Of a stretch of 64,000 nucleotides of DNA, positions 2,879-53,510 are shown piece by piece. Below the pieces are notes generated by a model. That model was given only the letters and a program-made list of their open reading frames with translations, was not told the DNA's origin and made no database searches. Every line of letters starts with the position of its first letter. Within the stretch, counting starts at the first letter, position 1. Made by a program: the position numbers and the translations under genes. Source of the DNA: an uncultured Ignavibacteria bacterium (lineage in GTDB: Bacteria > Zixibacteria > MSB-5A5 > WJJR01); NCBI GenBank assembly GCA_964440935.1, contig CAYTTY010000012.1:12873-76872 (forward strand). Reading direction: 5' to 3'.

Positions 2879-3361
2879 CTAATCTTTGAAGACGTCATCG
2901 ATCTTCGAGCCGGCCGACTCAGCAAACTGCGGATCCAACTCCGGTGCATTGTTTTCGGCCTGTGCACGCGTGAGAAGCTCTTTAAGCTTGTCGCTGGTTT
3001 CCTTGGCGTACAAACGCACCATCCCAATGGTCGTGCGATCATCGAAGACGATCGCGAGAATGCATCGTTCGCCGACCAGTGAAATGTGGATATGATCCTT
3101 GTGTCCCTGGTGAAACAGCACCGAGAATTCTGGTTCCCCGACGAGGCGGGCGATCTCCTTGGTCGACGCAAAGCTGCCCGCCAACAGGGCCGACAACGCG
3201 GTGGTATCGAGCGATTGCGTAAATCCCTGGCGTGTGATCAAGTGGCCATCCTTGTCGACCAGCAAGGCACACTTGGCTTCCGCCTTTTTGATCATCCGCA
3301 AAATGATCGCGTTGATCTGATCAATTTGTTCTTCCATCAGGACAAATGACTGAGACGACAT
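2879..3361 (-). CDS. mglB: MglB, roadblock/LC7-domain GTPase-activating partner of MglA. The ORF extends to 3391, but the ATG at 3361 (MSSQSFVLMEEQ...) avoids overlap with mglA.
   Basis: Strong similarity to Myxococcus MglB across its length (VLMEEQIDQINAI...LLVDKDGHLI...DTTALSALLAG...EFSVLFHQGHKDHIHISLVGERCILAIVFDDRTTIGMVRLYAKETSDKL). The acidic C-terminal tail is typical of MglB. Confidence 0.8.
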   Translation of the reverse strand: MSSQSFVLMEEQIDQINAIILRMIKKAEAKCALLVDKDGHLITRQGFTQSLDTTALSALLAGSFASTKEIARLVGEPEFSVLFHQGHKDHIHISLVGERCILAIVFDDRTTIGMVRLYAKETSDKLKELLTRAQAENNAPELDPQFAESAGSKIDDVFKD

Positions 3362-3372
3362 CGGCCACCTCC

Positions 3373-4365
<993 letters not shown>

Positions 4366-4398
4366 AAGTCGTCCGTTCTCCGGTTCGTCATGAACCGT

Positions 4399-4737
4399 TT
4401 AGATTCGCTGTAACTGTTCGATGGCATTGCGAATTTCGAGGCGCACCAGACCGATGTTCACGCGCGGTTCGGTGGTCACGACCAACGTTCCGATTCCCGC
4501 GTTGGACAGGAACATCTTATGATTGTCCGACTCGACCGTCACCTGAGCCAGATCGCCGCTTTTCATTCCATCGAGTGATTTGCGCACGGTGGCGGCAATC
4601 GAGGACGCCAGCGCGCCCACCGTATCGTCGTCGGTCTGACTGGTCAGATCCGCCGCAATGACGATCCCGTCATTGCCGACAACGAGGCTTCCGGTCACGC
4701 CACTCGTTTTGTTGAGCTGTGCCAATACGTCGTACAT
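4399..4737 (-). CDS. Roadblock/LC7-domain protein (second MglB/MglC-like paralog)
   Basis: 112 aa with the single-domain roadblock pattern (GSLVVGNDGIVIAADL...VGALASSIAATV...DLAQVTVESDNHKMFLSNAGIGTLVVTTEP). Its ATG overlaps the stop of the upstream gene (ATGA). Confidence 0.65.
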   Translation of the reverse strand: MYDVLAQLNKTSGVTGSLVVGNDGIVIAADLTSQTDDDTVGALASSIAATVRKSLDGMKSGDLAQVTVESDNHKMFLSNAGIGTLVVTTEPRVNIGLVRLEIRNAIEQLQRI

Positions 4738-4739
4738 CG

Positions 4740-5714
4740 TCAGACCTCCTCCAGGACCGCGTAGCTGTGGCGGCGCCGCTGGATATACTTGAGCATCATG
4801 TCGCGTGCTTGTGTCAGGCGCACACCGACCAAATCATCAACCTCGTAGTCGGTCAGCACGCCCAACCAGAAGTCATCAACCGCTTCCAGAATCACCCGTC
4901 CGGCGCTGGAGCGTATCTCGATGCGCTGCGGTTCCACTTCTCCACCGCGCGAAAGGCAGTACTGATTGAAACGGACCATCTCGATGGAGGTCGGCGCCCA
5001 ATACTCGACCGCCCCGGTGTAATCCTGGCGTTGCCAGAACGCCAATGGCAGCCCTTCGCGATCGACCATCCAGCACATCCGAATGCCGGTATATTCGCCG
5101 ACGTAGGCGACCGCCGCATCGAGATCGGGCGTATTGTCGGGGGCTGCTCCGTGTGATGCGGTTCGTCCGGCTGAATTCGCCGGTCGGGTGGCGACCAGTT
5201 TCGGCGCCGCTGTAACCGTGCCTGTGGTGCTTGATCCCGAAGGGCGGGGCGTCGAGTAGCTCGTGGACATGGCGAACCGCGGCTTTGGCGCCGGCTCGGC
5301 ATAGACGATCTTCCAAATCGCTCTGAGGACTAAGGGCGCCGAAAACACATGCAAAAGGACGGTGAACGGATACGACCACATCGCCATCGACGCCGTGTCC
5401 TGAAATCCGTAGTTGTTATTGAATGCGGCCAAACCGGCGAACAGCAGCGCGCACACCAGGCGATAAACCACCGTCATTCCTGAGGCAATGAACCGTTGCG
5501 ATCCTTTTAGCGTGGGCACCAGGAACAGAAGGGCCACGAAGTAGATCAGCCATTCGACCAAGACGATCGCCGGATGGAATTTGAAGTGGCCCAGACCAAC
5601 CGTTTTCGGATACAGCAGGAGTGGCAGGACGGCCAACACACCGGTCCACAAGATGATCTGACGGACGGCGACAGCGGTGCCGGGTCGTATGGATTGTCGT
5701 CTGGGCATAGTCAT
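4740..5714 (-). CDS. Membrane-anchored protein (about 4 predicted TM helices) with a C-terminal roadblock/LC7-like domain
   Basis: The N-terminal ~150 aa are hydrophobic (LWTGVLAVLPLLLY..., LIYFVALLFLVPTL..., LVCALLFAGLAAF..., FTVLLHVFSAPLVL). Then comes a Pro/Ser/Thr linker, followed by a roadblock-like domain of ~130 aa (GIRMCWMVDREGLPLAF...RIEIRSSAGRVILEAVDDFWLGVLTD). Confidence 0.5.
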   Translation of the reverse strand: MTMPRRQSIRPGTAVAVRQIILWTGVLAVLPLLLYPKTVGLGHFKFHPAIVLVEWLIYFVALLFLVPTLKGSQRFIASGMTVVYRLVCALLFAGLAAFNNNYGFQDTASMAMWSYPFTVLLHVFSAPLVLRAIWKIVYAEPAPKPRFAMSTSYSTPRPSGSSTTGTVTAAPKLVATRPANSAGRTASHGAAPDNTPDLDAAVAYVGEYTGIRMCWMVDREGLPLAFWQRQDYTGAVEYWAPTSIEMVRFNQYCLSRGGEVEPQRIEIRSSAGRVILEAVDDFWLGVLTDYEVDDLVGVRLTQARDMMLKYIQRRRHSYAVLEEV

Positions 5715-5728
5715 AACCTTCTATCGCA

Positions 5729-6631
5729 TCACGGTTCTGAACTCTCATCCGGGTCTGAATGGTTTGTCCTGTCGGAGCGGTCGATGCGCGCATACCAGTC
5801 GATTGCGAAGCGCCGTGCCTCGCCGTAGGACATGCCAGATTCTCCGATCAATCCGAGAATCATCGCGTCAAAACGGCCGCACCAGAGTTCACCCTGATCG
5901 GTTTCAACGCGCAGTTCACCGAGTGATCCACTGCTTATCCCTTTGAGGTGGGAGTCAATCTCACGGAACGCATCGAGAAGCGCGTTCACCGCAGGATCGC
6001 CGGTGGTTGTCGCATCGACGGGATAAATCACGTTCGCATTCTCATCCCAAGCGAACACCGATGTCACACCCCGCAACCGGCGGATCTGGTCGGCCCATTC
6101 CGCCCACGTTAGCGTTTCGTCGGGACGGGGGGTCGTGGCTGTGTCGACCATCTCGGGCTGAGTGTCGGCGGTATCGCCAATGTCGGTCGAATCGATGGTT
6201 TGCGCCGGTCGGTCACGCACTGCCTTCATTCGCGCCACGAGATCAATCACGGCCGGGTTACGCCGCTCAGCTCGCTGCAATCGTTCGATGATCGGCTGCG
6301 CCGCGGACGCGTCACCCATTTCAATGAACAGTTCCGCTTCGAGGAGATCGGTGCCCCGTGTCGAACCATCAATCTCGATCGCTTTGCGCAGCGAAGCCAT
6401 TGCATCGGGCAACATCTTTTGATGCAAAAACAATTTGGTCATTACGAGATGCGCCGGCGCATAGTCAGGATGATGTTTCAGTCCGCTTTTGCAGACGGCG
6501 AAGGCGCGTCCGAACTCACCTCGACGGCGATAGGCCTCAGCGAGGGCCGCAAAGACTTGTGAATGGGGATTGTCGGCCAGTATCGCGAGACACCGCTCGA
6601 TGCGCTCATCGAGTTCCGCTACAGTTATCAT
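5729..6631 (-). CDS. TPR-repeat protein fused to a C-terminal roadblock/LC7-like domain
   Basis: The N-terminal ~140 aa are TPR-like helical repeats (AEAYRRRGEFGRAFAVCKSGLKHHPDYAPAHLVMTKLF...). The C-terminal ~110 aa fit the roadblock fold pattern (VTSVFAWDENANVIYPVD...GELRVETDQGELWCGRFDAMILGLIGES). Confidence 0.5.
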   Translation of the reverse strand: MITVAELDERIERCLAILADNPHSQVFAALAEAYRRRGEFGRAFAVCKSGLKHHPDYAPAHLVMTKLFLHQKMLPDAMASLRKAIEIDGSTRGTDLLEAELFIEMGDASAAQPIIERLQRAERRNPAVIDLVARMKAVRDRPAQTIDSTDIGDTADTQPEMVDTATTPRPDETLTWAEWADQIRRLRGVTSVFAWDENANVIYPVDATTTGDPAVNALLDAFREIDSHLKGISSGSLGELRVETDQGELWCGRFDAMILGLIGESGMSYGEARRFAIDWYARIDRSDRTNHSDPDESSEP

Positions 6632-6822
6632 CTAGCCACCCTGGATAGACCAACCCTCTGAACAGCCCGCACCCTGCTCGCCACTTCGGGCTATCTCCTT
6701 ATGACATTTATAGGTATCGACCCTTGGGGGATTCTTCTTAACGATTGTGTGAACGGTAGAAGTGCCCTGGACAGAATCGATTGCCCGTAATTGGAAGGTG
6801 CACCACAATAGGTTAGCCGTTC

Positions 6823-7221
6823 TCACCCGGCCAGCAAGCGCCGCATCCGCGCGGCTCCCACTAAGATGATGAGCACGGCCCCCAATCGGAGGACACCAAC
6901 CCAGAAATCCGACATCGGCAGGAGCCCCGCTTCGGCTCCGAAACCGGCCATCTGTGCCAATCCGAGGACGAGAAATCCCAATGTGAACCACTGCCAGCCC
7001 TGAGCAATGCGGCCGCCGCGAACAGAATTGTACACCTTGAATGCGGTCAGCGCACAGGCCGCGGCGACCAACAACAGCGCGAGTTCAACAAGTGCGCCAC
7101 CGCTGAACATTCCGCCACCCTGCGATTCTGTTTCGGCCACGGCCATCGATGGATACAGGAGAACCACGGCTGGTCCAGCCAGTCCCAGCAGCCTATGTGT
7201 GATTCGGCTCGACATAATCAT
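6823..7221 (-). CDS. Small integral membrane protein, function unknown
   Basis: 132 aa with 3-4 hydrophobic segments. Its start overlaps the stop of the upstream PATAN gene (7218-7221), consistent with translational coupling. Confidence 0.45.
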   Translation of the reverse strand: MIMSSRITHRLLGLAGPAVVLLYPSMAVAETESQGGGMFSGGALVELALLLVAAACALTAFKVYNSVRGGRIAQGWQWFTLGFLVLGLAQMAGFGAEAGLLPMSDFWVGVLRLGAVLIILVGAARMRRLLAG

Positions 7222-8390
7222 GCTCCCATCAGCGCCCGTCGAAATTCAAGGGCGATATCGTAACGTTCGGCCAGGTCGCGCTTTTGCGCTAAGAGGAAGG
7301 TGACATCTTTTTGTATAGCAGCTCGAACCTGACCGGCGACATGAGGACTGATCAGATCGCGCAGTGCCATCACCTTGTCGGCCAGCAGGCGATTCGCCAA
7401 ATCCAACACCCGATGCAGGCGGATTGGATCGGCGATACGCTTGACGACTTCGCGGAACTCCGACTCCGAACCGCCGCTGGCGGCGGTCAGAATACCGACC
7501 AACTCGGCATGATTGTCGGTGCATTCCGGCGGTACGGTGAAGAAGATCCGGTCTCCGTGAGCACCGAGATATTCCGTAAGCACCTTGTGCACGGACCCGA
7601 GCGAGTGTGAGTACAGCCGGTACACCAAATCGTAGAGCTGGAACTCCTCCGATCGACGTGAGACACGTTCTGCAGCGTCCGGACATTCTTCCAACAAATG
7701 GTTTTGCAGCAGTTTGTGGAGCGACTTCGACGCGGCATATTCACCGTGCGAACCCGATACGAGGATGTCGTTAATACTGCGTTCCCCATTGATGGCGGAG
7801 AGCACTTCGATGTCCTCAGCGGTCAGCGTGATCTCCTCATTTTCGAGCTGAGGCGATGGTGTCAGCCGCAGCACAGTATCACCATCAGGCAATGAATGTG
7901 CGACTTCCATATACTCATCGAACCGACGCGCGCCTTCCATCATCACATTGAGTGAATTCAACTCGACCGGGATATGAGTCGCATCGGGCGCCTCACTATC
8001 GACGAACTCAAATTGGCCATCCGGGTAGCTGAAGACCGAGTAGACCATCTCCTCGACTTGCGCCCGCAGGGCGTCCACCACCTTGCTCCGGTCGCACAGT
8101 CCCAGCTCGATCAATGTGTGTCCCAGACGTTTCCCATTGGCGGATTGACGCTTCAATGCGCGGTCAAGCTCATCGGCACTCAACACACCACGGCGGATCA
8201 ACAACTGGCCGAGCCGTTCTTCTTCAATGTTCGAATCGGATGATGCGGCGACAACGTCGCCACCCTTGAAGTAGATGTACTTCGCTCCCTGAGGCCGGAA
8301 CAGACGCAAAACACCGGTCTTCTTTCCGGTAGCAATCAGTTGGAGGATATCTCCAAATGAGAGTGTGCGCAGATTCCCTGTGAATCCCAT
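7218..8390 (-). CDS. PATAN/DUF4388-domain protein, the type reported to co-occur with MglA-like GTPases and roadblock proteins
   Basis: The N-terminus LRTLSFGDILQLIATGKKTGVLRLF matches the DUF4388/PATAN signature (G.L....l.dllQ.l....ktG.L.l). The remainder is alpha-helical. No receiver domain is evident. Confidence 0.6.
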   Translation of the reverse strand: MGFTGNLRTLSFGDILQLIATGKKTGVLRLFRPQGAKYIYFKGGDVVAASSDSNIEEERLGQLLIRRGVLSADELDRALKRQSANGKRLGHTLIELGLCDRSKVVDALRAQVEEMVYSVFSYPDGQFEFVDSEAPDATHIPVELNSLNVMMEGARRFDEYMEVAHSLPDGDTVLRLTPSPQLENEEITLTAEDIEVLSAINGERSINDILVSGSHGEYAASKSLHKLLQNHLLEECPDAAERVSRRSEEFQLYDLVYRLYSHSLGSVHKVLTEYLGAHGDRIFFTVPPECTDNHAELVGILTAASGGSESEFREVVKRIADPIRLHRVLDLANRLLADKVMALRDLISPHVAGQVRAAIQKDVTFLLAQKRDLAERYDIALEFRRALMGA

Positions 8391-14863: not shown

Positions 14864-14884
14864 TCGTTTTCGCAATCAGATTCG

Positions 14885-14923
14885 AGATGGCTGCCATCGA
14901 AGGATGGCGGCCATTTTGTGTTT
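14885..14923 (+). terminator. Rho-independent terminator downstream of rpsT
   Basis: Hairpin GATGGCTGCCATC-GAAG-GATGGCGGCCAT followed by TTTGTGTTT. Confidence 0.6.
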
Positions 14924-15150
14924 GGAGAATTACTAGCACCCGGCTTCAGCCGGGTGATTGCGACAACCCAACCCTCCTCCCCGAAAACCGTTGAAACGGT
15001 TCTCGGAGAAATATTCTTTCCGCCGCAACCACCGCTCTGAAGAGCGGTGTTAAAAAGCATAAAGTCTGCAATGGCGCTCACCTTGTCGGTCCTGTGGAAA
15101 ACCCTTTGACGCGCCGCCTCGCCGGGAGGCTCGCCCTTGATCGGGATCTC

Positions 15151-16353
15151 TCACCACACAATGTGCCGTGCCAATTTCAACAGCCCCGGGCTGTGGCGGA
15201 GACCTTGTTTGATGACGTGGATGGGATCGATCGCGGTGATGGTTTGGCCGTTGTAAATCGAGCCGAGGAATTCGACCACGTTGTCGAAATCTTGATTTGT
15301 CATCTTCAACATGATATTGCGTGTCCAGAGGAAGTAGCGCATTTCGCGGCCACGGGCGGCCATCCAGTTTTTCGGATACGCTTTGAGCAGGCTCAGATCG
15401 CCGTGTCCGTCTTGCATGTAATCGACCGCCGCGTTCGCCGCCAACCGTCCCGACCACAGCGCATTGGCAATCCCCGCCCCAGTGACCGAATCGAGCAGAC
15501 GCGCCGCATCGCCGGCGACCATGACATTCGATGTGAGCATAAACTTGCGCCCATGGAATTCGGGAATGCCGCCGACCGATTTCTTCAATGGTGTTGGCGT
15601 GATGTTGCCGAAACGAAAGGTGATAAACTCGCGCAGCATCTGAATCGCTTTGCGTCCCCCGGCCACCACCGGCGCGACCGCGATGCCGACATTGGCGGTG
15701 CCGTTCCCCTTAGGGAAGACCCACGCGTAACCACCGGGGGCGAGTTTGGCATCGAAGTAAAACTCCAAACAACGCGGATCGAGATCGGGGACATTGCCGA
15801 TCAGAAACTGCGCGGCCGAATCCATGTGATCAACTGAGAGCGTCGTGTCGATTCCTGACCAGCGTGCGATCATCGACTCGACACCATCGGCGGCAATGAG
15901 AATTTCACAGCCGACGGTGCGTTGGCTGCTGTTCTCTTTCAGAGTAACACTGGTGACACGTCCACCGCCATTCTTCTCGACACCAATCGCTTCGGTTTCG
16001 GTGACCACCTCCGCGCCATGTGCGGCGGCGCGGTCGGCCAAACCCTGCTCGAAACGGCGGCGTGACAAGACAAATCCGGCGTCGGGATGCAAGAAGTCGA
16101 TCATCTTGCCGCCCGCTGAGCGCAGATAGCAGCGCTCGATGTCGGCGGCAACCCAGTTGCGGTCGAGTTCAACGTTATCCGTCAGACCGCAAAACGATAT
16201 CGCTTCGGCACAACAAAGCGGTTCACCGATGGTTGGATGCTTTTCAACGAGGAGGGTGCGTAGCCCGGCTTTCGCGGCAGTGATGGCCGCCATTCCCCCG
16301 GCGGGACCGGCGCCGATGATGACGACATCGTAGTTGTGATCGGTGGCAGGCAT
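15151..16353 (-). CDS. FAD-dependent geranylgeranyl reductase family oxidoreductase (ChlP/GGR-like)
   Basis: YDVVIIGAGPAGGMAAITAAKAGLRTLLVEKHPTIGEPLCCAEAIS is the GGR N-terminal FAD motif plus the catalytic Cys region. 400 aa. Confidence 0.8.
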   Translation of the reverse strand: MPATDHNYDVVIIGAGPAGGMAAITAAKAGLRTLLVEKHPTIGEPLCCAEAISFCGLTDNVELDRNWVAADIERCYLRSAGGKMIDFLHPDAGFVLSRRRFEQGLADRAAAHGAEVVTETEAIGVEKNGGGRVTSVTLKENSSQRTVGCEILIAADGVESMIARWSGIDTTLSVDHMDSAAQFLIGNVPDLDPRCLEFYFDAKLAPGGYAWVFPKGNGTANVGIAVAPVVAGGRKAIQMLREFITFRFGNITPTPLKKSVGGIPEFHGRKFMLTSNVMVAGDAARLLDSVTGAGIANALWSGRLAANAAVDYMQDGHGDLSLLKAYPKNWMAARGREMRYFLWTRNIMLKMTNQDFDNVVEFLGSIYNGQTITAIDPIHVIKQGLRHSPGLLKLARHIVW

Positions 16354-16369
16354 GACGCATCAGGACCGG

Positions 16370-16552
16370 CTATTCAATCGCGAGCGCCTCGGTCGGGCAA
16401 GCAATCACACACAGATCACACAAAATGCACTCGTCGTGGAGAATCTCCAACACCCGCGGACGCAACACCAGCGCATCGTGCGGACAGACCGCCACGCAGA
16501 GCCCGCATTCGGAGCATTCGTCGGTGTCTAACTTCAGTTCCGCAACAGCCAT
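16370..16552 (-). CDS. 2x[4Fe-4S] dicluster ferredoxin
   Basis: 60 aa with two CxxCxxCxxxCP motifs (CSECGLCVAVCP, CILCDLCVIACP). It lies 17 nt upstream of the GGR gene on the same strand. Confidence 0.75.
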   Translation of the reverse strand: MAVAELKLDTDECSECGLCVAVCPHDALVLRPRVLEILHDECILCDLCVIACPTEALAIE

Positions 16553-16624
16553 GTCAGTTCAGCCCTCCTGGCGATTAAAACAGGATAACATGTAGTCTGT
16601 TTTAATGTCAGTGCGGAATGGGAG

Positions 16625-17782
16625 TTAGTCAATGCCCTCAATGCGAAAAGTCTGAAACCGGTCACGATTGAGGAAAAACAGCCGCTTCTCATCCTGGTCG
16701 ATCTGCACCACCGGGTAACCCGGTACCCACTTCCGGGGAGCGTTGTTTTTCGAATCGAGCAGTTCGCCGGTTCGGCTGAATATGAGACAGCGGCTACGGG
16801 TGTGCCGGTCAGACGATGACGGGCCGGGATCATAGTCCAAACCAACAGCGACCAACTCAGCTTCATCGATGAGGTCGACACTGCGGAAATTCCATTCCGG
16901 ATCGCCGGTTTCGGTTTCCCACACCACCTCGGCGCTCGCCACCTGAATGACCGCCGCGTGATCGGCCGAGATCACGGCGGCATGAAGGCCATCGGGCGAG
17001 ACCGCCATGTCGCGGATCGGCTCGACCTCGGTCCGCCAACCGAGGATTTGATTCAATTCACCGTTGTGATGAAAATAAAGACGATCACCGCGCTGGAGCA
17101 TCACCACGGATCCGTCGCGTGACGCCGCCCAATCGTCGGTTGCACCGTATTGGCGAACGACACGCCCCGTGGGCGCATGGGCGGTCAGTCCCGATTGTGA
17201 CGATTCTACGAACACCAGCGATCCATCACGGGAGAACTCGGCACCCTTGTAGCGTTTGACAACCACCGTATCGTGACGCCGTCCGCTGCGATCATAGAAA
17301 CGCAGTACACTCTGGGGCAATCCCTCCGCCCCATCGACACCGACAAACGCACTGCCGGTCGGTGCGATGATGGCCGAGGCAAATGGCGGATCATCGATGC
17401 GTTTAATCTGCTCGCCGTCTTCAGCAAAGAGATCGAATGTCACCGCGCTCAATGTCTTCGGCTGACGGTCGGCAAAGGCGATTACGCCAAGCACGCTCGA
17501 TCCCGGCTCGGCGAAGAGATATTCGTTGCCCCGCAGATTCAGACGACGCTGGCGGCTCCCCTTGGCCGAGTAGAATTCCAGCCGTCCGCCCTTGACATAG
17601 ACCCAGCCGCCATTTTGCAGAACCGTCCAGCGACGGCTCTTGGTGAGATCCGCATGGGAATCAAGTTTAAGCGATTGAGCCTTTGACAGCGCGCCAGTGG
17701 CCAGCACAACGGCGAGCGCAATGAATGTACGAAGAAGGAATGTCCGCAATGTGGTCAACATCGATTCGAAATGATGATACAC
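16625..17782 (-). CDS. Secreted hypothetical protein, probably a beta-propeller. Alternative start at 17761 (MLTTLRTFLL...).
   Basis: Signal peptide LRTFIALAVVLATGALSKAQ. Repeated beta-strand-rich segments. No recognisable catalytic motif. Confidence 0.5.
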   Translation of the reverse strand: MYHHFESMLTTLRTFLLRTFIALAVVLATGALSKAQSLKLDSHADLTKSRRWTVLQNGGWVYVKGGRLEFYSAKGSRQRRLNLRGNEYLFAEPGSSVLGVIAFADRQPKTLSAVTFDLFAEDGEQIKRIDDPPFASAIIAPTGSAFVGVDGAEGLPQSVLRFYDRSGRRHDTVVVKRYKGAEFSRDGSLVFVESSQSGLTAHAPTGRVVRQYGATDDWAASRDGSVVMLQRGDRLYFHHNGELNQILGWRTEVEPIRDMAVSPDGLHAAVISADHAAVIQVASAEVVWETETGDPEWNFRSVDLIDEAELVAVGLDYDPGPSSSDRHTRSRCLIFSRTGELLDSKNNAPRKWVPGYPVVQIDQDEKRLFFLNRDRFQTFRIEGID

Positions 17783-17787
17783 GTATT

Positions 17788-18219
17788 CTACTCTAAAGAT
17801 TCAAGCAGCCGATCGCGCGCTTGGCCGGTGGCCTCAAGATATTTCCCGGTCGCGGTGGCAAATAGCGTTCCGTCGGAACCGGTCAGTTCACCCGATGTTT
17901 CCAGCAGCCGTCCCTTTTGGCCGGTTACGCGTCCCCTCAGATGGAGTTTATCGCCCACCGTAACCGCCTTCTTGAATCGTACCGACATTTCGACCGTGAG
18001 GGCATACTTCCTTTTCGCCAGCACGGCCTTGGCCATGATTTCATCAAGCAGCGTGGACACCAATCCACCGTGGTAAATGCCGCGATATCCTTGGAATTTC
18101 GGTTCGGCTACGCATTCGGATACGGCCTCATCGCCGTCGGTCAAGAAGACCAGTTGCATCCCATCGGGGTTTTCATCACCGCATACGAAGCAGCCACTGT
18201 ATCGAACAATCTCGCTCAT
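17788..18219 (-). CDS. PaaI-family hotdog-fold thioesterase
   Basis: 143 aa. The pattern YHGGLVSTLLDEIMA...VEMSVRFKKAV is typical of PaaI/YbgC-like thioesterases. Confidence 0.75.
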   Translation of the reverse strand: MSEIVRYSGCFVCGDENPDGMQLVFLTDGDEAVSECVAEPKFQGYRGIYHGGLVSTLLDEIMAKAVLAKRKYALTVEMSVRFKKAVTVGDKLHLRGRVTGQKGRLLETSGELTGSDGTLFATATGKYLEATGQARDRLLESLE

Positions 18220-18541: not shown

Positions 18542-19465
18542 CTAGTCGCAGATATCGCCGGTGGCGCTGTGGCTGAAATCGCCCGATTCGACGGTGATCG
18601 TACCGCGGCCGGCGCCAAGGAACTGGACATTGGCATCCCAGACGCCACTGGCCGACTCGTGGTTACTGCCCTCGTACACGTCGATGCTCACACTGAAGCT
18701 GGCCGATGCGCTGCCGCCATTCGGACAGGCTTCCAAGCCCGGATTCGGCCCCGGCACCGTCACGTTGTTGTTCTGTGCATCAAATTCGAAATCCATGAAC
18801 ACACTGGTGTCCGGGCTGACAACGTCAAAGTCGAACAGGCCGGATGATCCCCCGGCCACCGTGACCACACTGGTGTTCAAACCGGTCACGTCCAAATCCA
18901 CATCGGTATCCATGACGATGCTGAACGATCCCTCATCGTCAGAGAGGGTCCAATTCATCCCCACCGATCCGCGCTCAGTGACACGGTAGGTTGATGCATC
19001 GGGGTCCCGTTGCGGTGTGCCATCGAGAGTTTCGAAACGCACCGAATCGCTTAAATCAATCGCAATGCCGAAGAAATCATCCTGGGCGTTGTATGTAATC
19101 GACCACCACCCTGACTGATCGTCATAGGCCATTACCAATGTATCGTTCTGCAACTGTCCGATCTTTCCCAATCCCTGTACAGCAGGCGACACAAATGCAC
19201 CACCCATCACATCAGCGCTATCGACGCCGTCCCAATACGGACTCGCGGCTTGTTCGGTGACGATATCATTGATATCGAACAAAGCGTCATCGGATTCGAA
19301 ATCCATGTTGACAAACTGATCGAGTGATTCAAACTGGTCGTCCTTTGATAGAGTGCCCGAACCGGGACCGGTGGTGTCATCGTCGCTGCCGCCGCAACCG
19401 ATGATCAGCAGCACAACTGTGGTCACGACCAGAAAGGTCGCCGAAATTCCCAAGAACCGTCGCAT
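18542..19465 (-). CDS. Acidic lipoprotein, function unknown. Paralog of 19708-20637.
   Basis: Lipobox LLIIGC followed by a GGSDDD acidic linker. Shares the ...DSVRFET.GG.PQ... core and a C-terminal ...TGDICD end with the downstream paralog. Confidence 0.6.
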   Translation of the reverse strand: MRRFLGISATFLVVTTVVLLIIGCGGSDDDTTGPGSGTLSKDDQFESLDQFVNMDFESDDALFDINDIVTEQAASPYWDGVDSADVMGGAFVSPAVQGLGKIGQLQNDTLVMAYDDQSGWWSITYNAQDDFFGIAIDLSDSVRFETLDGTPQRDPDASTYRVTERGSVGMNWTLSDDEGSFSIVMDTDVDLDVTGLNTSVVTVAGGSSGLFDFDVVSPDTSVFMDFEFDAQNNNVTVPGPNPGLEACPNGGSASASFSVSIDVYEGSNHESASGVWDANVQFLGAGRGTITVESGDFSHSATGDICD

Positions 19466-19707: not shown

Positions 19708-20637
19708 CTACTCGTCGTCTTCTTCACACAAGTCGGCTGTCTCTGTCAGGGTAACGTCACCCGATTCGTAGGTAATCGTGGCGATGCCATTCACAATCGT
19801 CACATTAACGTCCCATGTGCCCTGAGCCGATGCCGAACCGCTTGGCGTAGTGACATTGGCGTCGAGTCCCAGTCCGATCTCCATTGATCCGCTGGCTACG
19901 CAACCACCCTCTTCGAAGTTCGGCACGACACCATTGGTGGTAGAACCATCGACCGTCAGGGCAAAGGTGGCCGTGGTGTCATTGCTTTGATAGCCGCCGC
20001 TGAACGTTCCCGAGGTTCCCCCATTGATCGTCGCTGTCGCCGTTGTCAACCCGGAGATATCGACACCGGTCGCGAAGTCCATATCCAGGTTGAACGTCTG
20101 CCCTCCGAACACACCCGACATTTCCAAATCATAATTGGTGCGTTCGATAAACGTCTCGGTGTCATCGCCCGGGATCTGCTGCGGCTCACCTCCGGCCGTC
20201 TCAAAACGGACGGAGTCAATCAAACTCAGGTCGTAGATGAGACCAAATGCACTGAAGGCACTGTCGATTTGGATTTCCCACCATCCGTTGCTGTAGCCGT
20301 AGGAAACCGATGCCCTTACGAGGTTCGATGGTACGGCCTTGTTCAATCCCGGCAAGAAGAAGCCTTCAAAATCCTGCTCGTCGATTCCATCCAGAAACGC
20401 CCCACTGATTTCGCCGATTCCAAGGGTTAGAATGCTGAAGCCCAGAGCACCTTCTTCCGTGGTATCGGGGTCGAGATCAATGAACTGATCAATCAGCTCG
20501 AATTGTTCTTCCGCCGAGATCGTATTGACCGGCCCGGTTCCCCCGTTGCCATTATCATCATCACTGCACCCAACAAGCACTAGGGACAGCAGGCTGACCG
20601 CCGCGATCAGGTGTACCATCCGTGACATCTTGCTCAT
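19708..20637 (-). CDS. Acidic lipoprotein, function unknown. Paralog of 18542-19465.
   Basis: The start at 20637 (MSKMSRMVHLIAAVSLLSLVLVGCSDDD) gives a signal peptide plus lipobox. The longer ORF to 20685 overlaps argF. C-terminal ...TETADLCEEDDE. Confidence 0.6.
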   Translation of the reverse strand: MSKMSRMVHLIAAVSLLSLVLVGCSDDDNGNGGTGPVNTISAEEQFELIDQFIDLDPDTTEEGALGFSILTLGIGEISGAFLDGIDEQDFEGFFLPGLNKAVPSNLVRASVSYGYSNGWWEIQIDSAFSAFGLIYDLSLIDSVRFETAGGEPQQIPGDDTETFIERTNYDLEMSGVFGGQTFNLDMDFATGVDISGLTTATATINGGTSGTFSGGYQSNDTTATFALTVDGSTTNGVVPNFEEGGCVASGSMEIGLGLDANVTTPSGSASAQGTWDVNVTIVNGIATITYESGDVTLTETADLCEEDDE

Positions 20638-20662
20638 GACATTTCCCCCCGTGTACGTCATA

Positions 20663-21694
20663 TCACCGCGCCAGCAGCTGCGCAATGATCGCTCCCTGAA
20701 TCCAAAGACGGTTTTCCGCTTCGTCGAATACGACCGACTGGGAACCGTCCATCACATCGTCGGTAATCTCCCGTCCGCGTTCGGCGGGCAGGCAATGCAT
20801 GACAATAGCGCTCTCTTTTGCACCGCGCAAGAGATCATTATTCACTTGAAACCTCTCCAGCAATTGCGCACGCTGATCGGCCATCTCCTTTTGGCCCATC
20901 GAGGCCCAGACGTCGGTGTAGACGACATCGGCATCGGCCACCGCCTCGGCTGGATCGTGCATGATTGTGATTTTGCTCACACCCGTTTCTTGTGCGGCGC
21001 CAACCACGGTGAGATCGGGCATCGTTTGTTCCGATGTTGCCAAGCGCAGGTCCATCGGTATGCGCGATGCGAGATTGGCCCAGGAGTGAAAAACGTTGTT
21101 GCCGTCCCCCAGGAATGCCACGGTCAAATCATCGATCGTGTCAAGGTGTTCATCGGCGGTCATGATATCGCCGAGCACCTGGCAGGGATGGTACATGTCG
21201 GTGAGTGCGTTAATGACGGGGACGGTGGCGTGCTCAGCCAGTTCATCGACATGCGACTGCTCGAACGTGCGGATCACGATCAATCCCAAATACCGTGACA
21301 TGACTTTAGCCACATCATGGATCGATTCGCGCACACCCAGTTTAATCTCGGCATCGGTGATGAACATCGGGTGACCGCCCAAACGGAACACTCCGGTTTC
21401 GAAGCTCTGGCGTGTCCGTAGCGACGGTTTGTGAAAGACCAGTCCGGCAGCGTGTCCTTCGAGCGGGCGAGGGTTGACTTTGCCGGCTTTCCATTTGCGC
21501 GCCCAGGCGATGGTCGTACGGATCTCGTCGGCAGTCCAATCGCTGATGCGCAGGAAGTCCTTGGTCGATACTCCCGGCGGCATCCCCTTCTTGCCTTTGG
21601 CCTTTGTCGTCGTGGGTTTGCGCGCGGGGTTTTTAGCAGCCGATTGGGCGCTGGTGTCTTTCTTTTTCTTTTTGGGCATGGTCGTCCTCAACAA
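20663..21694 (-). CDS. argF: Ornithine carbamoyltransferase. The true start may be the internal Met at 21583 (MPPGVSTKDFL...); the longer form carries a Lys-rich N-terminal extension.
   Basis: Transcarbamylase motifs are present: SLRTRQSFE (STRTR-like), HPCQ, HCLP, DVWASMGQ. Confidence 0.85.
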   Translation of the reverse strand: MLRTTMPKKKKKDTSAQSAAKNPARKPTTTKAKGKKGMPPGVSTKDFLRISDWTADEIRTTIAWARKWKAGKVNPRPLEGHAAGLVFHKPSLRTRQSFETGVFRLGGHPMFITDAEIKLGVRESIHDVAKVMSRYLGLIVIRTFEQSHVDELAEHATVPVINALTDMYHPCQVLGDIMTADEHLDTIDDLTVAFLGDGNNVFHSWANLASRIPMDLRLATSEQTMPDLTVVGAAQETGVSKITIMHDPAEAVADADVVYTDVWASMGQKEMADQRAQLLERFQVNNDLLRGAKESAIVMHCLPAERGREITDDVMDGSQSVVFDEAENRLWIQGAIIAQLLAR

Positions 21695-35520: not shown

Positions 35521-36633
35521 GAGCGATTGTCAGATTAAATTTCCGATTGCGGCGGTTTGGCTGGTGCGTTGTGGGTTGTCGATCACATCGAGAATGGCGT
35601 GATCCAAGCGTTCGAGTAATTGGTCGAGATGGCGACAGATATAGTTGTTGAACCAGGTGGCCTTCATCACCAGCCAGATGCGTTCAATCGGGTTGAGATC
35701 GGGGGAGTAGGGCGGCAGATACATCACCTCCCACCCGTGCCAATTCAACGATTTGCGTTTGTGCCAGGAGGCATTGTCGACAATGAGGATGTTGCGTCGT
35801 CGCTGGACGGTCACCGATCGGTCTGCTTCATTGAGGAACGCTTGGAAGGTGTCCGAGTCCGAATGAGACGCTTCGATGGCAAAGAACTCGCCGGTGCGGG
35901 GACAGACCATCCCCATGACATTCATCCGCAGGTGATCGCCGTTTTTGGTGCTGCGGGTCTTGTGACCCTTTTTGTCCCAGCGCCGTCGGGGTCGCGGATC
36001 CCCCTCGAATCCCGACTCGTCGGCAAACCATAACTCGACGTCGGGATCCTGGCTAAGTTCCTGTAGCTGTTGCCGAAACGCCTCCCGCAGAACCTCATCC
36101 TGACGATCCGGCCACGGTTGTGGCACCTTGAGGGCAAAGCCCTGCCGATGGAAGAATCGCACCACCGTTTCATAGCTGCACTCCACCTGATAGGTCTCAG
36201 AGAGGTAGCCGTGGAACGCCTTGGCGGTCCAAAACGTGCGGTCCGCCTGTTCGGGGTCGCTGATCAGACGGGCGAACTGCGTGGCTTGTTCGCCTCGAAG
36301 AATCGCTGTCCGACCGGGACGTTTCTGCACAATCAACCCATCCACACCGCGGTCGTTGAATGCTTTAACCCAACTGCGCAGCGACCGCTCCGTCACCACC
36401 AACGCCGCGCACACGGTGTCACGCGGTGTGCCGGCCAGCAGAAACTGAATCGCGGTACAGCGGACCGACGTTTCGGGTGAACCCACACGCCCCGCCCCCT
36501 TCAACTCCTGGATACTCGCGTTCTCCGGATTCGGCTCGAGTGCGCGGCGTGCCATGAACACACCATGCCGTAATCACTTACAAAAGTCTAGAATTTTCTG
36601 GCCCCAAACGGAAAATATTTATGACAATCGCTC
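35521..36633 (-). mobile_element. IS630-family (Tc1/mariner-like) insertion sequence, 1113 bp, with terminal inverted repeats GAGCGATTGTCA...TGACAATCGCTC and a TA target-site duplication (35519-35520, 36634-36635)
   Basis: The left end TA|GAGCGATTGTCAGATTAAATTTCCG and right end CGGAAAATATTTATGACAATCGCTC|TA are inverted repeats. A TA duplication is the IS630 hallmark. The element contains a single DDE transposase ORF. Confidence 0.8.
35530..36561 (-). CDS. IS630-family DDE transposase
   Basis: 343 aa. N-terminal HTH region, then D..D..E: ...LWFADESGF..., ...NILIVDNASWHK..., ...YLPPYSPDLNPIERIW.... The stop codon lies inside the left TIR. Confidence 0.85.
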   Translation of the reverse strand: MFMARRALEPNPENASIQELKGAGRVGSPETSVRCTAIQFLLAGTPRDTVCAALVVTERSLRSWVKAFNDRGVDGLIVQKRPGRTAILRGEQATQFARLISDPEQADRTFWTAKAFHGYLSETYQVECSYETVVRFFHRQGFALKVPQPWPDRQDEVLREAFRQQLQELSQDPDVELWFADESGFEGDPRPRRRWDKKGHKTRSTKNGDHLRMNVMGMVCPRTGEFFAIEASHSDSDTFQAFLNEADRSVTVQRRRNILIVDNASWHKRKSLNWHGWEVMYLPPYSPDLNPIERIWLVMKATWFNNYICRHLDQLLERLDHAILDVIDNPQRTSQTAAIGNLI

Positions 36634-50306: not shown

Positions 50307-53300
50307 TCAGAAATCGGCGCCCAGTGAGAAGTAGTACTTCGGATGGGCAGCCACCACGTCGAGATCCGTCCGCCACGCCTGATCGAACCGTAACAGTACA
50401 AACCCCAGGTTGGCCCGCAATCCGTAGCCGAAGGCCATCTTGATGTCTTCGAGGTGGAATCCGTTGGCGCTGCTGGTTCCGCGGAACTTATCGTTGTCGC
50501 TCCACGCCGAGCCAACATCGGTAAAAAGCACACCGCCGATCTGGCTGAGCACTAACGGTAGTGGAAAGCGCATGGCGAAGTAGTCGACGAATGGAAAGCG
50601 GAATTCGGCATTGAGCAAGCCGAATCGCGATCCGTCGATTTCGTAGTAGTCATACCCTCGGAACGGGGTAATCAACTGGCTGAAATACAATCCCTCCACG
50701 TCGTACACACTCGACCGGCTAATCGTTGATCCGATCCAGTTGCTCATGCCGCCCAGATAGAATCGTTTCGGATTGCTGCCTCCGGACACACCGCCGGCCA
50801 GACGCAGGGCCACGCTGTAGCGGCCACCGAGACGGGCGTACTGACGGAAGTCGAAGGTCATCGCCCGGTAGCTGATCCCGTCGGAGAACCCGTCGGGAGC
50901 GGCCTCCAGCGACACGCGATAACGCCGGCCGCTTTTCGGGGCGGTCATCCCCCAGGTCGAATTGTCGTGAACCATTGACAATACGCCGACGGCAACGCGA
51001 TCCGACCGGTCGCGTTCGGGCGGTTCCGGCCGATCCACGAACCGCCGGTCGATAAACACCATCATACCGTCGAGTTGCAGCCGTGTGAACTTGGAGAACG
51101 GTCGGGCAACATTCGCCTGGAAACCGTACGTGCGGTCACTGAACAGCTTATTGTTGAAATTCAAATAGAAGTACTTTGAGTGGAACAAACCGATGCCGTA
51201 GTCGATCCGCTTCGGCGTGTACCGGTAATACACTTGAATGTTCGACTGATCGATTGTGTTGATGAGATCAGTGGCAACGAAGACCTGGTGATCGCCCAGG
51301 TAGTCGGAGATGACAAAGAACGACTGTCCACGCAACCCGAAGAAGGTGTCATAGCCAAGGCCACCGGTTACCAGATCGGGCGTGAATTTCGGTGAGTAGT
51401 CGTGGACCTCGTATTCGGTCAGCACGGTGTCGGCTTGGGCAACCATTGTGGCCGATGTGGTGTCGTCCTCCGCCACTGCCATCTCATCAAGGTCTTCCGG
51501 CGTCGGCGGACCGAGCGGCTGGCGGGCCGCGGTCGTGTCCCCTGACGTTGCCGAGGTGTCGTCCTTGATCGGCCGGTGCTCGTACGGAGTACTCGCCGGC
51601 TGGACGAACGACGTGAACTCCAAGTCTTCCGAGAGCAGCTTGGGCGCGCGTTCTTCCAATTCGACCTCACGACGAATGACGAACGCACTGGAATCCTCAC
51701 CGGATAGCCGTCGTACAAATGCCGTGGGCGCGAGATTCTTGCCCGGCTCCGCCTTGGGTCGAATGTCTGTCATCAAAAACACATCGAAACCACCGCGGTA
51801 GAATGCGGAGAATGCGATCTGCTGTCCATCGGGAGACCAGGACGGGCTGAAGCAACCGGAAATGGCATCGGTGACCGGAAACGGCTCCGCACCGAGCGAG
51901 TCGATGATGTACAGATTATAGATACCGTTCTTGTTGGAGACGAAGCAGATTCGGTTCCCGTCGGGCGCATACACCGGTGTTTTGTCTTCGGCATCGTCGT
52001 TTGTCAACGGATGCACCGTCCGCGTTACCAAATTCGCTTCGAAGACGTTGTAGCGGCCGAATGCGAACGTGGCCGGATTCTGATCGTCAGGCAGCATCAA
52101 TGGCGTGGTGGCGTCGGACGGCCGGTCGGCGGCGAAGATGATGCGATCACCGTCGGGATGGAAATGAGCATCCTGCTCATCGTAACGGTCGTTTGTGAGC
52201 CGAGTCACCGATTCGGTCGCGAGATCGACGAGATAGAGATCGTTTTGATCGTGGCGGTTCGCGGTTACGACAATCGACTTGCCGTCGGGAGAAAACGACG
52301 GCGACCGCATTGATTGAAAGCCGAAGCGCAACGTTTGATCGTCACCGCTGCCATCGACATCGAGCAACATCAAGGCGTCGTGGCCGCCCGACTTGGCAAT
52401 CAGGGCGAGCGTGGAACCGTCGGGAGAGAAGTCCATACCTGACACAAAAGAATGCAGTGATTCAAAGCGATCGGTCCGTCCGCCTTTGATCACTGTGCCC
52501 AAGTGTTCGCCGTCAACGGTCGAGATGATTTGCACTTCCGTATTGTCGGCTTTCTCAGTAAGAATGGCGATGCGATTACCGCGGGGCGAGAACACCGGTT
52601 TCTCATTGAAATACGAACCGTCTTCTTCGTGGTCGGTAAGCTGGCGCGCGAACAACTCCGGTTCTTCGCGAATCGAGATTTCGGGCCAGTACTCCTTGCG
52701 CAGGCGCTTTTGCCACTCCTCATTGAACTCTTCGATACCCTTCCCGATCGTCTTTTTCAAGGAGTTGTCCATAGTGAGTTCAAACCGCCCCTTGGACAAC
52801 ACCTCTGCGATTTTCTCTTCACCGTAACGTTCGGCGAGATACAGGACCGCGGACTGCCCTTGCTTGTAGGCGAGGTAGCCGCCGACGTAATTCAGCGGGA
52901 TGAGATAGTTGTGCACGGTGGCGTCGCGGATGACCATATCGGCGAACGTGTCCCATCCGTGGCGAGAGGAATACTCCGCAAATCCCTCGGCAAACCAGAG
53001 CGGAACATTGAAAAGCGCCTGCCGTGAGAAGATCGAGCCGACGCCGCTGAACAGCATGTCGAAGGTCACGGCATGCGTGAGTTCATGGTGCAACACATGG
53101 CGGAAGTCCTCGTACGATCCGGTGAACGGCATCACCATGCGGTTCTTAAACGATTCGGTGAACCCCCCGACCCCCTCTTCCAGCAGGCTGCTGGTGACGT
53201 TGGTCTGTTGGAATTCGTTGTGCGATTGGTAGATGATCGCCGGGACGCGATTTTGCAGCGAGTAGTTCAATTCCTCGGAGACTTGCACGTACGCCGATTC

Positions 53301-53510
53301 GAGCACGGTTGCCGTAAACACGGCGAGGCCGTAGCCACCGTCATAGAAGTAGACGTCAAAGTGCTCGGAGGATATGTACTGCCAGTCGAAATCGCGATAC
53401 TGGACTTTGTTCTTGCCGAACTGGGCGACGGCCTCGGATCCGTCGAGGGCTCCGGAAAGGAGAATGCCCAACGCAATGAGAGCCAGCGTAAGGAACCGTA
53501 ACGTCATCAA
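50307..53510 (-). CDS. Large secreted outer-membrane protein: signal peptide, then a HExxH zincin-like domain, a TolB/PD40-type beta-propeller, and a C-terminal Omp85 (BamA/surface antigen D15)-type beta-barrel
   Basis: Signal peptide MMTLRFLTLALIALGILLSGA. VLHHELTHAV is a HExxH motif. PD40-like repeats are present (PSFSPDGKSIV, PVYAPDGNRICFVSNKNG). The C-terminus ...KMAFGYGLRANLGFVLLRFDQAWRTDL...KYYFSLGADF matches the Omp85 barrel terminal signature ending in Phe. Confidence 0.5.
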   Translation of the reverse strand: MMTLRFLTLALIALGILLSGALDGSEAVAQFGKNKVQYRDFDWQYISSEHFDVYFYDGGYGLAVFTATVLESAYVQVSEELNYSLQNRVPAIIYQSHNEFQQTNVTSSLLEEGVGGFTESFKNRMVMPFTGSYEDFRHVLHHELTHAVTFDMLFSGVGSIFSRQALFNVPLWFAEGFAEYSSRHGWDTFADMVIRDATVHNYLIPLNYVGGYLAYKQGQSAVLYLAERYGEEKIAEVLSKGRFELTMDNSLKKTIGKGIEEFNEEWQKRLRKEYWPEISIREEPELFARQLTDHEEDGSYFNEKPVFSPRGNRIAILTEKADNTEVQIISTVDGEHLGTVIKGGRTDRFESLHSFVSGMDFSPDGSTLALIAKSGGHDALMLLDVDGSGDDQTLRFGFQSMRSPSFSPDGKSIVVTANRHDQNDLYLVDLATESVTRLTNDRYDEQDAHFHPDGDRIIFAADRPSDATTPLMLPDDQNPATFAFGRYNVFEANLVTRTVHPLTNDDAEDKTPVYAPDGNRICFVSNKNGIYNLYIIDSLGAEPFPVTDAISGCFSPSWSPDGQQIAFSAFYRGGFDVFLMTDIRPKAEPGKNLAPTAFVRRLSGEDSSAFVIRREVELEERAPKLLSEDLEFTSFVQPASTPYEHRPIKDDTSATSGDTTAARQPLGPPTPEDLDEMAVAEDDTTSATMVAQADTVLTEYEVHDYSPKFTPDLVTGGLGYDTFFGLRGQSFFVISDYLGDHQVFVATDLINTIDQSNIQVYYRYTPKRIDYGIGLFHSKYFYLNFNNKLFSDRTYGFQANVARPFSKFTRLQLDGMMVFIDRRFVDRPEPPERDRSDRVAVGVLSMVHDNSTWGMTAPKSGRRYRVSLEAAPDGFSDGISYRAMTFDFRQYARLGGRYSVALRLAGGVSGGSNPKRFYLGGMSNWIGSTISRSSVYDVEGLYFSQLITPFRGYDYYEIDGSRFGLLNAEFRFPFVDYFAMRFPLPLVLSQIGGVLFTDVGSAWSDNDKFRGTSSANGFHLEDIKMAFGYGLRANLGFVLLRFDQAWRTDLDVVAAHPKYYFSLGADF

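Follow-up and report, generated by a model that had tools for sequence, protein, structure and literature searches.

A probable ferredoxin-driven prenyl reductase module encoded by a conserved gene pair in Zixibacteria

The geranylgeranyl reductase (GGR) MA1484 of Methanosarcina acetivorans depends on a ferredoxin, MA1485, encoded next to it, and this pair provides the experimental precedent for a GGR with a neighboring ferredoxin (Isobe et al. 2014, as relayed in PMC10821996 and PMC7852524). The locus of Ta0516, the digeranylgeranylglycerophospholipid (DGGGPL) reductase of Thermoplasma acidophilum, also has a 4Fe-4S gene (PMC10821996), and the functional motifs of the GGRs have been described (PMC10821996, PMC6309074). 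GGRs of the euryarchaeal type are already known in bacteria: those reported for Cloacimonetes are related to euryarchaeal enzymes, and saturation of archaeal-type lipids in bacteria has been suggested as their role (Villanueva et al. 2021, PMC7852524). Ferredoxin coupling is not mentioned in the main text there, ferredoxin appearing in a reference title only, and Zixibacteria are not named. Here we analyze a ferredoxin–GGR gene pair in a Zixibacteria chromosome segment of 64,000 nucleotides (contig CAYTTY010000012.1, positions 12,873 to 76,872 of the forward strand), which is referred to as the window and in whose coordinates its features are given.

We propose that the pair forms a two-gene redox module, a ferredoxin-driven prenyl reductase, and that it is an old, vertically inherited pair in Zixibacteria. 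We assign this reading a probability of roughly 0.7. A previous sequence-only reading of the same DNA described an archaeal-style GGR with a dedicated ferredoxin in a bacterial chromosome and implied that such an arrangement is rare. The components of that description agree with our results, but the rarity does not.

The reductase, its ferredoxin and the spread of the pairing

The GGR gene (15151..16353, minus strand; ATG start in the list of open reading frames, ORFs) encodes a 400-aa flavin adenine dinucleotide (FAD)-dependent geranylgeranyl (polyprenyl) reductase, assigned to the GGR superfamily from profiles. Its product exceeds the cut-off of the superfamily model TIGR02032 (IPR011777; 202.8 bits against 158.8) as well as that of the catalytic-domain model PF22578, GGR_cat (66.5 bits against 27; E = 2e-18), as expected for the GGR-family flavoenzyme named earlier, and it matches FAD_binding_3 (E = 2e-17). 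The FAD motif G14xGxxG19 (G14AGPAG19), the cavity motif Y209xWxFP214 (Y209AWVFP214) and the FAD motifs G281-D282 (LxGD type) and R285xxD288 are all present and invariant in the clade alignment. Residue C48 aligns with the catalytic, essential cysteine of the Thermoplasma enzyme (TaGGR, 3OZ2) and of the Sulfolobus enzyme (SaGGR, 4OPL; Cys47 equivalent), and it is invariant in 15 homologues. Around this cysteine, a clade-specific CAE replaces CGE.

Among solved structures, the best sequence match of the enzyme is 3OZ2 from Thermoplasma acidophilum (E = 1e-53, residues 7-386), with SaGGR second (E = 1e-16). An AlphaFold2 model was built with 15 homologues (predicted local distance difference test score 86.1, predicted template modeling score 0.87). 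Its best match in the PDB is again 3OZ2, with a template modeling (TM) score of 0.88 and a root-mean-square deviation of 2.8 Å, and the SaGGR entries follow at 0.80-0.83. The predicted structure has the three-domain GGR fold. The nearest characterized relatives therefore appear to be the euryarchaeal lipid reductases, and the description of the enzyme as archaeal in style is well founded.

The ferredoxin gene (16370..16552, minus strand; ATG start in the ORF list) lies immediately upstream on the same strand, as the sequence-only reading stated. It encodes a 60-aa clostridial-type 2x[4Fe-4S] ferredoxin, the proposed electron donor of the GGR, recognized by Pfam models (Fer4, E = 4e-16; Fer4_7, E = 9e-14) and by two CxxCxxCxxxCP cluster motifs (C13/16/19/23 and C42/45/48/52). 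The stop codon of the ferredoxin gene, TAG, occupies 16370-16372 and the ATG of the GGR gene 16351-16353, and the spacer (16354..16369, minus strand) is therefore 16 nt long, one less than the 17 nt given before. In related loci, the spacing ranges from about -50 (overlap) to +30 nt. Together, the two genes probably make up a separate, bicistronic transcription unit. The ferredoxin is 93% identical to that of the closest Zixibacteria relative (locus L081) and 28-47% identical to the ferredoxins of the related loci. It has the length and cysteine spacing of the ferredoxins that precede 55+ related archaeal and bacterial GGR genes.

We scanned 80 related GGR loci from species-representative genomes for two-cluster ferredoxin ORFs. 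The informative loci were the 77 with at least 250 nt of upstream sequence, with the Poribacteria locus L009 counted from a separate scan. A ferredoxin of ~55-60 aa with two [4Fe-4S] motifs is located directly upstream on the same strand, or fused to the GGR, in 58/77 of them (29/39 archaeal and 29/38 bacterial loci); since the motif search was strict, this value is a lower bound. On the archaeal side, the pairing occurs in Methanosarcinales (the MA1484 orthologues), Thermoplasmata, Methanobacteriales, Methanomassiliicoccales and Methanocellales. On the bacterial side, it occurs in Zixibacteria, Ignavibacteria, Cloacimonadota, Bacteroidota, KSB1, Calditrichota, Gemmatimonadota, Fibrobacterota (Chitinispirillaceae), Poribacteria and several Chloroflexi. 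Every Zixibacteria relative in the clade of the window GGR with sufficient upstream sequence has it, including L087, in which the ferredoxin is present but was missed by the gene finder. No ferredoxin was found upstream of the GGR in locus L007, on a neighboring branch. Two Anaerolineae loci carry in-frame ferredoxin–GGR fusions (L040:7716-9086, 457 aa, and L061:7776-9074, 433 aa, both stop to stop).

Because the gene order recurs in 58 of the 77 loci and in the Zixibacteria relatives of the window clade, the pairing is far above chance. In this GGR branch, a neighboring ferredoxin gene is the rule in both domains and no peculiarity of the window; the arrangement is routine in many bacterial phyla, contrary to the rarity implied earlier. 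The suggestion of a specific donor–reductase couple stands: the conservation of the adjacency in both domains, together with the two Anaerolineae fusions, makes it very likely that the ferredoxin is a dedicated, direct redox partner of the GGR.

We envisage that central anaerobic metabolism reduces the ferredoxin, which then donates its low-potential electrons singly to the flavin of the reductase. C48 of the reductase would lie behind the isoalloxazine ring, and the cavity formed around YxWxFP would position the prenyl chain. The reduced flavin and C48 would then hydrogenate the C=C bonds of a geranylgeranyl or longer polyprenyl chain, by the same chemistry as in Methanosarcina MA1484/MA1485 and the Thermoplasma lipid reductases. 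Given an established family, motif set, fold, conserved adjacency and natural fusions, we predict the electron flow from ferredoxin to FAD and the prenyl-reductase activity with good confidence.

Inheritance, neighboring genes and the substrate

The closest homologues of the GGR, from 87% down to ~61% identity, come from metagenome-assembled genomes (MAGs) of Candidatus Zixiibacteriota, which also provide the best named matches. The housekeeping genes in the window include murJ, rpsT, hslVU, xerC, topA, gmk, yicC, comEC, ffh, trmD, rimM and rplS, accompanied by rnhB, serA, argF-like, purL-like and murA-like genes and a type II/IV secretion ATPase. In agreement with the sequence-only reading, the window is an ordinary stretch of a bacterial chromosome. 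In Zixibacteria, the genes follow the order 4HBT thioesterase, variable genes, ferredoxin–GGR, convergent rpsT, murJ, comEC and PatA_N, and the ferredoxin-GGR-rpsT-murJ-comEC order is kept while GGR identity falls from 87% to 43%. The GC content of the pair, 58.6%, is close to that of the window, 57.4%.

The phylogenetic position of the GGR, which the sequence-only reading proposed to examine against ChlP/BchP, menaquinone reductases and archaeal DGGGPL reductases, was studied in a neighbor-joining tree of 101 sequences, rooted on SaGGR, with 100 bootstraps and with the MenJ and ChlP clades left out. The window GGR falls in a Zixibacteria-wide clade of its own (bootstrap 92/100), in which the close relatives group at 100/100. 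This clade is separate from a clade of Cloacimonadota, Ignavibacteria, Bacteroidota, KSB1 and Calditrichota enzymes (97/100), and is also apart from the Chloroflexi groups and from the euryarchaeal groups with 3OZ2. The deep nodes are poorly supported (bacterial monophyly 1/100, main euryarchaeal group 3/100), and the order of the bacterial and archaeal clades relative to each other has bootstrap values of 1-24/100. The long SaGGR branch separates its enzyme from all the others, the window, Methanosarcinales, Thermoplasmata and other bacterial GGRs lying together on one side of it. The window enzyme is 28-34% identical to the other bacterial and euryarchaeal clades (31-34% where Methanosarcinales, Thermoplasmata and other bacterial clades are compared), against 25.6% to SaGGR.

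The phylum-wide synteny, the clade support (92/100) and the native GC content show that the pair is old and vertically inherited in Zixibacteria, and on these grounds we reject a recent transfer from Archaea. As far as the window is concerned, the two genes are unexceptional: a housekeeping pair that is well conserved in the phylum.

Some taxon labels among the related loci are doubtful. The GGR of the locus labeled Bacteroides salyersiae (L063) nests within gut Methanomassiliicoccales, and the locus labeled Ignavibacteria (L003) is nearly identical to Zixibacteria L002. P0063, P0066 and P0067 (locus L085) are labeled Limisphaerales/Verrucomicrobiae, and L085 shows full Zixibacteria synteny (ferredoxin-GGR-rpsT-murJ-comEC-PatA_N). 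Mis-binned or mislabeled MAG contigs are the likely explanation for these labels.

As the substrate, we tentatively favor the isoprenoid chains of ether lipids of the geranylgeranylglyceryl phosphate (GGGP) and digeranylgeranylglyceryl phosphate (DGGGP) type, which might be made through the GGGP synthase (GGGPS) and DGGGP synthase (DGGGPS) homologues of the Fibrobacteres–Chlorobi–Bacteroidetes (FCB) group. A survey of 12 FCB phyla, Zixibacteria among them, reported orthologues of both synthases in every one (Coleman et al. 2019, PMC6431249). This phylum-level table statement is the only one on Zixibacteria lipid, quinone or isoprenoid biology in the literature covered.

Several observations weigh against this assignment and against the reading as a whole. 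Among the FCB phyla, Fibrobacteres and Cloacimonetes were the only two with a reported glycerol-1-phosphate dehydrogenase (G1PDH; PMC6431249). Annotation of the window with Pfam and NCBIfam, on essentially all large ORFs and supplemented by a Logan contig covering 45-56 kb, gave no isoprenoid, UbiA, GGGPS, polyprenyl synthase, men, mqn or bch/chl gene in the 64 kb. In the syntenic Zixibacteria loci, genes for GGGPS, UbiA, polyprenyl synthases and other isoprenoid enzymes are missing too, and neither G1PDH nor DGGGPS occurs in the window or in these loci. Because no prenyl-lipid gene adjoins the pair, the substrate is not readable from the Zixibacteria context. In the enzyme itself, the last G of YxWxFPx8GxG is Ala in the Zixibacteria clade (GxA), and GGG is changed to GAG. 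The archaeal DGGGPL reductase equivalog models (NF041160, NF041080 and NF041385) are all missed: the score is 193.8 bits for the Thermoplasmatales model (cut-off 780), 118.9 bits for the general model (cut-off 580) and 72.4 bits for the haloarchaeal model (cut-off 700). Since all curated equivalog and subfamily cut-offs are missed, the window enzyme is a GGR-superfamily member of an uncharacterized subfamily. Finally, the neighbors vary by bacterial clade, and judging from them the GGR family evidently serves several prenyl substrates.

Clustering of the neighboring genes in the 80 loci gave no universally conserved partner besides the ferredoxin. A UbiA prenyltransferase gene is located directly upstream of ferredoxin–GGR in KSB1, Cytophagia, Calditrichota, an unclassified bacterium, Chitinispirillaceae and Poribacteria (loci L009, L050, L051, L029, L020 and L036), and the same UbiA-ferredoxin-GGR order is found in the euryarchaeon L055. 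In three of the bacterial loci (KSB1, Cytophagia and L020), a PgsA-like CDP-alcohol phosphatidyltransferase follows downstream, and the Chitinispirillaceae locus has two tandem UbiA genes. The Poribacteria UbiA (L009:6888-9182) has the DGGGP-synthase model NF009521 as its top full-length match, with 240.7 bits, below the cut-off of 296, and its relatives in the database carry the NCBI name DGGGP synthase. A search with this protein returned named matches from Poribacteria only and is uninformative on Zixibacteria. A profile search with the sister-clade UbiA gave no Zixibacteria among the 120 matches listed, which were mostly homogentisate phytyltransferases of Saprospiraceae.

In Saprospiraceae/Phaeodactylibacter (L075, L076:6436-10499 and L078:4530-8599), the GGR gene is accompanied by two S-adenosylmethionine-dependent methyltransferase genes and a homogentisate phytyltransferase that exceeds its cut-off (358.8 bits against 226); this cluster suggests a Bacteroidota pathway resembling those for tocopherol or plastoquinol. 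In Cloacimonadota (L005:678-3481 and L006:1898-4812), ferredoxin–GGR precedes two further genes, one of ~200 aa and unknown family and one for an ArnC-like polyprenyl-phosphate glycosyltransferase that stays below its cut-off (201.8 bits against 529), which hints at a carrier-lipid connection in that phylum. Because these clade-specific neighbors differ, ferredoxin–GGR appears to be a portable unit for prenyl-chain saturation that serves different prenyl lipids in different lineages.

A more far-reaching, speculative and on balance unlikely proposal is that the module belongs, as an ancestral component passed on vertically, to an archaeal-type pathway for isoprenoid ether lipids in Zixibacteria and, beyond them, in the FCB group, Poribacteria and Chloroflexi. 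Such a pathway would yield saturated phytanyl-type lipids or mixed membranes, and the module would pre-date or span the 'lipid divide' instead of stemming from a recent transfer.

The strongest competing explanation is a quinone side-chain saturase, in which the ferredoxin would drive the reduction of menaquinone tail units by an enzyme of the MenJ-like or of the archaeal menaquinone-specific type. We consider this unlikely, although the quinone side chain ranks second among the possible substrates. The GGR family includes quinone prenyl reductases (PMC10821996, PMC6309074), and Zixibacteria have been described with quinone-dependent respiratory complexes (PMC3903129). A PaaI/4HBT hotdog thioesterase gene (17788..18219) is conserved a few genes upstream of the pair in Zixibacteria. 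The hotdog fold is that of the 1,4-dihydroxy-2-naphthoyl-CoA thioesterases of the menaquinone pathway, and some UbiA neighbors in sister clades give weak MenA-like scores. However, the thioesterase stays under the cut-off of the hotdog-thioesterase model, none of the menaquinone-pathway models recognizes it, variable and unrelated genes separate it from the pair, and the absence of men, mqn and UbiA genes noted above extends from the window to the syntenic loci. Against the MenJ model (NF045655), the GGR reaches 83.8 bits, far from the cut-off of 700. The sequence-only reading regarded a placement among housekeeping bacterial reductases with routine ferredoxin adjacency, such as menaquinone saturases, as the outcome that would speak against it. 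A bacterial clade with routine adjacency is nearly what we find, but the MenJ score does not support a placement with the menaquinone saturases.

The Saprospiraceae cluster bears on another alternative, which we regard as improbable. Here the enzyme would reduce free geranylgeranyl diphosphate (GGPP) to phytyl diphosphate as a building block for some small prenylated product, for instance a phytylated aromatic, in a role like that of ChlP but outside photosynthesis. In vitro, GGPP is reduced by both the Methanosarcina enzyme (MaGGR) and TaGGR (PMC6309074), and the BchP-ChlP subfamily model TIGR02023 is the second-best match of the window GGR. Its score of 127.3 bits is nevertheless well below the cut-off of 343.3, and that for ChlP (TIGR02028) is 71.9 bits with a cut-off of 505.3, which makes a BchP/ChlP-type substrate appear the weakest of the candidates named by the sequence-only reading. 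Moreover, the Saprospiraceae clade is a separate deep branch (100/100), its 'downstream ferredoxin' calls overlap the GGR by 57-130 nt and are doubtful, and the surroundings of the Zixibacteria pair lack phytyltransferase and bch genes.

More improbable still is a polyprenyl-phosphate carrier saturase, which would produce a dolichol-like, partly saturated glycan carrier for envelope biosynthesis. GGR, rpsT and murJ are adjacent throughout the Zixibacteria clade, the ArnC-like glycosyltransferase follows the pair in Cloacimonadota, and archaeal GGR paralogues have been proposed as dolichol saturases (PMC10821996). However, murJ lies beyond the convergent rpsT in a block whose entire gene order is conserved. 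Because the whole block is syntenic, the murJ adjacency carries little functional weight, and we discounted it as functional evidence. The rpsT-murJ pairing is common in bacteria without a GGR, the glycosyltransferase link is confined to one clade, and we know of no established saturated undecaprenol carrier in bacteria.

It is very improbable that the protein is not a prenyl reductase at all but a FixC/ETF-QO-like or monooxygenase/halogenase-type flavoprotein with a generic ferredoxin beside it by chance: it shares the general two-dinucleotide-binding flavoprotein fold and weakly matches FixC (7koe_C, E = 6e-10, TM 0.75), halogenases and UbiH-type hydroxylases, but these matches (E = 1e-10 or worse, TM 0.6-0.75) are clearly inferior to 3OZ2, in E value by dozens of orders of magnitude, the FixC-type model PRK10015 gives 34.4 bits with a cut-off of 466, the protein has the GGR-specific catalytic domain and YxWxFP, its gene has neither EtfAB nor FixX genes beside it, and the ferredoxin is of the ~60-aa type that accompanies GGRs in both domains.

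Flanking signals and other features of the window

The DNA around the ferredoxin–GGR unit contains weak signals that may bound it. In the 72-nt intergenic region 5' of the ferredoxin gene (16553..16624, minus strand), a weak sigma-70-like site is found at 16611..16582 (minus strand; CTGACA-18-TATCCT with a TG extension, 9/12 matches). The scan found 3 such sites in this region, compared with 1.7 expected from shuffled sequences, and since this number does not exceed the shuffled expectation, the site is only a candidate promoter. The same holds for the promoter and terminator scan in general, in which the counts were not above the shuffled expectation. Downstream, a GC-rich 8-bp palindromic hairpin (15030..15049, no strand assigned) may serve as a terminator shared by the convergent GGR and rpsT genes. 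It folds as CACCGCUC-UUCA-GAGCGGUG, and the 71-nt region containing it has a minimum free energy of -22 kcal/mol (z = -2.8 relative to shuffles). The hairpin has no canonical U tract and is absent from the terminator-scan output. An Rfam scan of the whole window gave no RNA family, and nothing regulatory 5' of the pair.

Directly upstream of the ferredoxin gene is a 385-aa ORF (16625..17782, minus strand) with a signal-like N-terminal segment and no Pfam or NCBIfam match. Relatives have different genes in this slot (a 371-aa protein of unknown family in L081; an acetyltransferase and a 156-aa ORF in L082), and the ORF is therefore probably outside the module. In the closest relative, L081, a thioredoxin-like gene of 168 aa lies between GGR and rpsT (L081:11186-11692). 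A tblastn search of the corresponding 287-nt gap in the window (14864..15150), which contains the GC-rich hairpin, detected no remnant of it.

Elsewhere in the window, an MglA/MglB-like polarity/motility module (2879..8390, minus strand) is syntenic beside comEC in all Zixibacteria loci examined. It comprises a Roadblock/LC7 protein (2879..3391), a Ras/Arf-like small GTPase (3373..4365), a TPR protein (5729..6631) and a PatA_N/DUF4388 protein (7218..8390), all encoded on the minus strand. Two tandem paralogous ORFs (18542..19465 and 19708..20685, minus strand) encode proteins of 307 and 325 aa that are 33% identical (E = 7e-34). Both have N-termini like those of lipoproteins, contain acidic linkers and match no Pfam family, and at this position relatives carry 2-3 copies. 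A 1067-aa protein (50307..53510, minus strand) combines Peptidase_MA_2, a Tricorn/PD40 beta-propeller and Omp85, an unusual fusion of a protease with an outer-membrane barrel, and a similar one is encoded in the Zixibacteria locus L086. The only obvious mobile element in the window is an IS630-like transposase gene (DDE_3 and HTH; 35530..36561, minus strand), ~19 kb from the pair.

Comparison with described systems

In the literature covered, we did not find a statement of the breadth of mini-ferredoxin coupling across bacterial phyla, of the Anaerolineae fusions, or of the variety of prenyl pathways attached to the pair. Conservation in two domains and natural fusions independently support, at the genomic level, the view that ferredoxin is the physiological reductant in this branch of GGRs. 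If the pair does saturate isoprenoid ether lipids, Zixibacteria would be, after Cloacimonetes, a further bacterial group capable of producing membrane lipids of the archaeal type, which would bear on the 'lipid divide' debate and on the source assignment of sedimentary isoprenoid biomarkers. Compact and probably mesophilic ferredoxin–GGR pairs or fusions could also be used for engineering reduced isoprenoids.

Mycobacterial MenJ and BchP/ChlP belong to the same GGR superfamily as the window enzyme and share the chemistry of isoprene-unit saturation, but the window GGR clearly misses their cut-offs. To our knowledge, neither is encoded with a dedicated mini-ferredoxin. The GGRs of Cloacimonetes have a similar setting. 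As in the window, the host belongs to the FCB superphylum and the enzyme is of the euryarchaeal type, a ferredoxin gene lies upstream in Cloacimonadota L005 and L006, and saturation of isoprenoid ether lipids is a possible function in both cases. The clades that contain the Zixibacteria and Cloacimonadota enzymes are nevertheless distinct, as described above.

The closest solved structure is that of Ta0516, with which the window GGR shares GxGxxG, the catalytic Cys, YxWxFP, LxGD and RxxD at an identity of ~32%. In place of the CGE, GGG and GxG of Ta0516, it has CAE, GAG and GxA. TaGGR has been reported to use NADPH in vitro.

The MA1484/MA1485 pair of Methanosarcina acetivorans, as represented in the accounts cited at the outset, differs from the window pair in sequence and setting. 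GGR identity is ~31-34% and ferredoxin identity ~30%, the window GGR belongs to a separate Zixibacteria clade, and its host is bacterial, with bacterial envelope genes. The arrangement, however, is the same: a small 2x[4Fe-4S] ferredoxin gene stands directly upstream of the GGR gene on the same strand, and the proteins belong to the same family and carry the same motifs. The ferredoxins of the Methanosarcinales loci L016, L017 and L023, which are 57-60 aa long, have the same cysteine spacing as the ferredoxin of the window.

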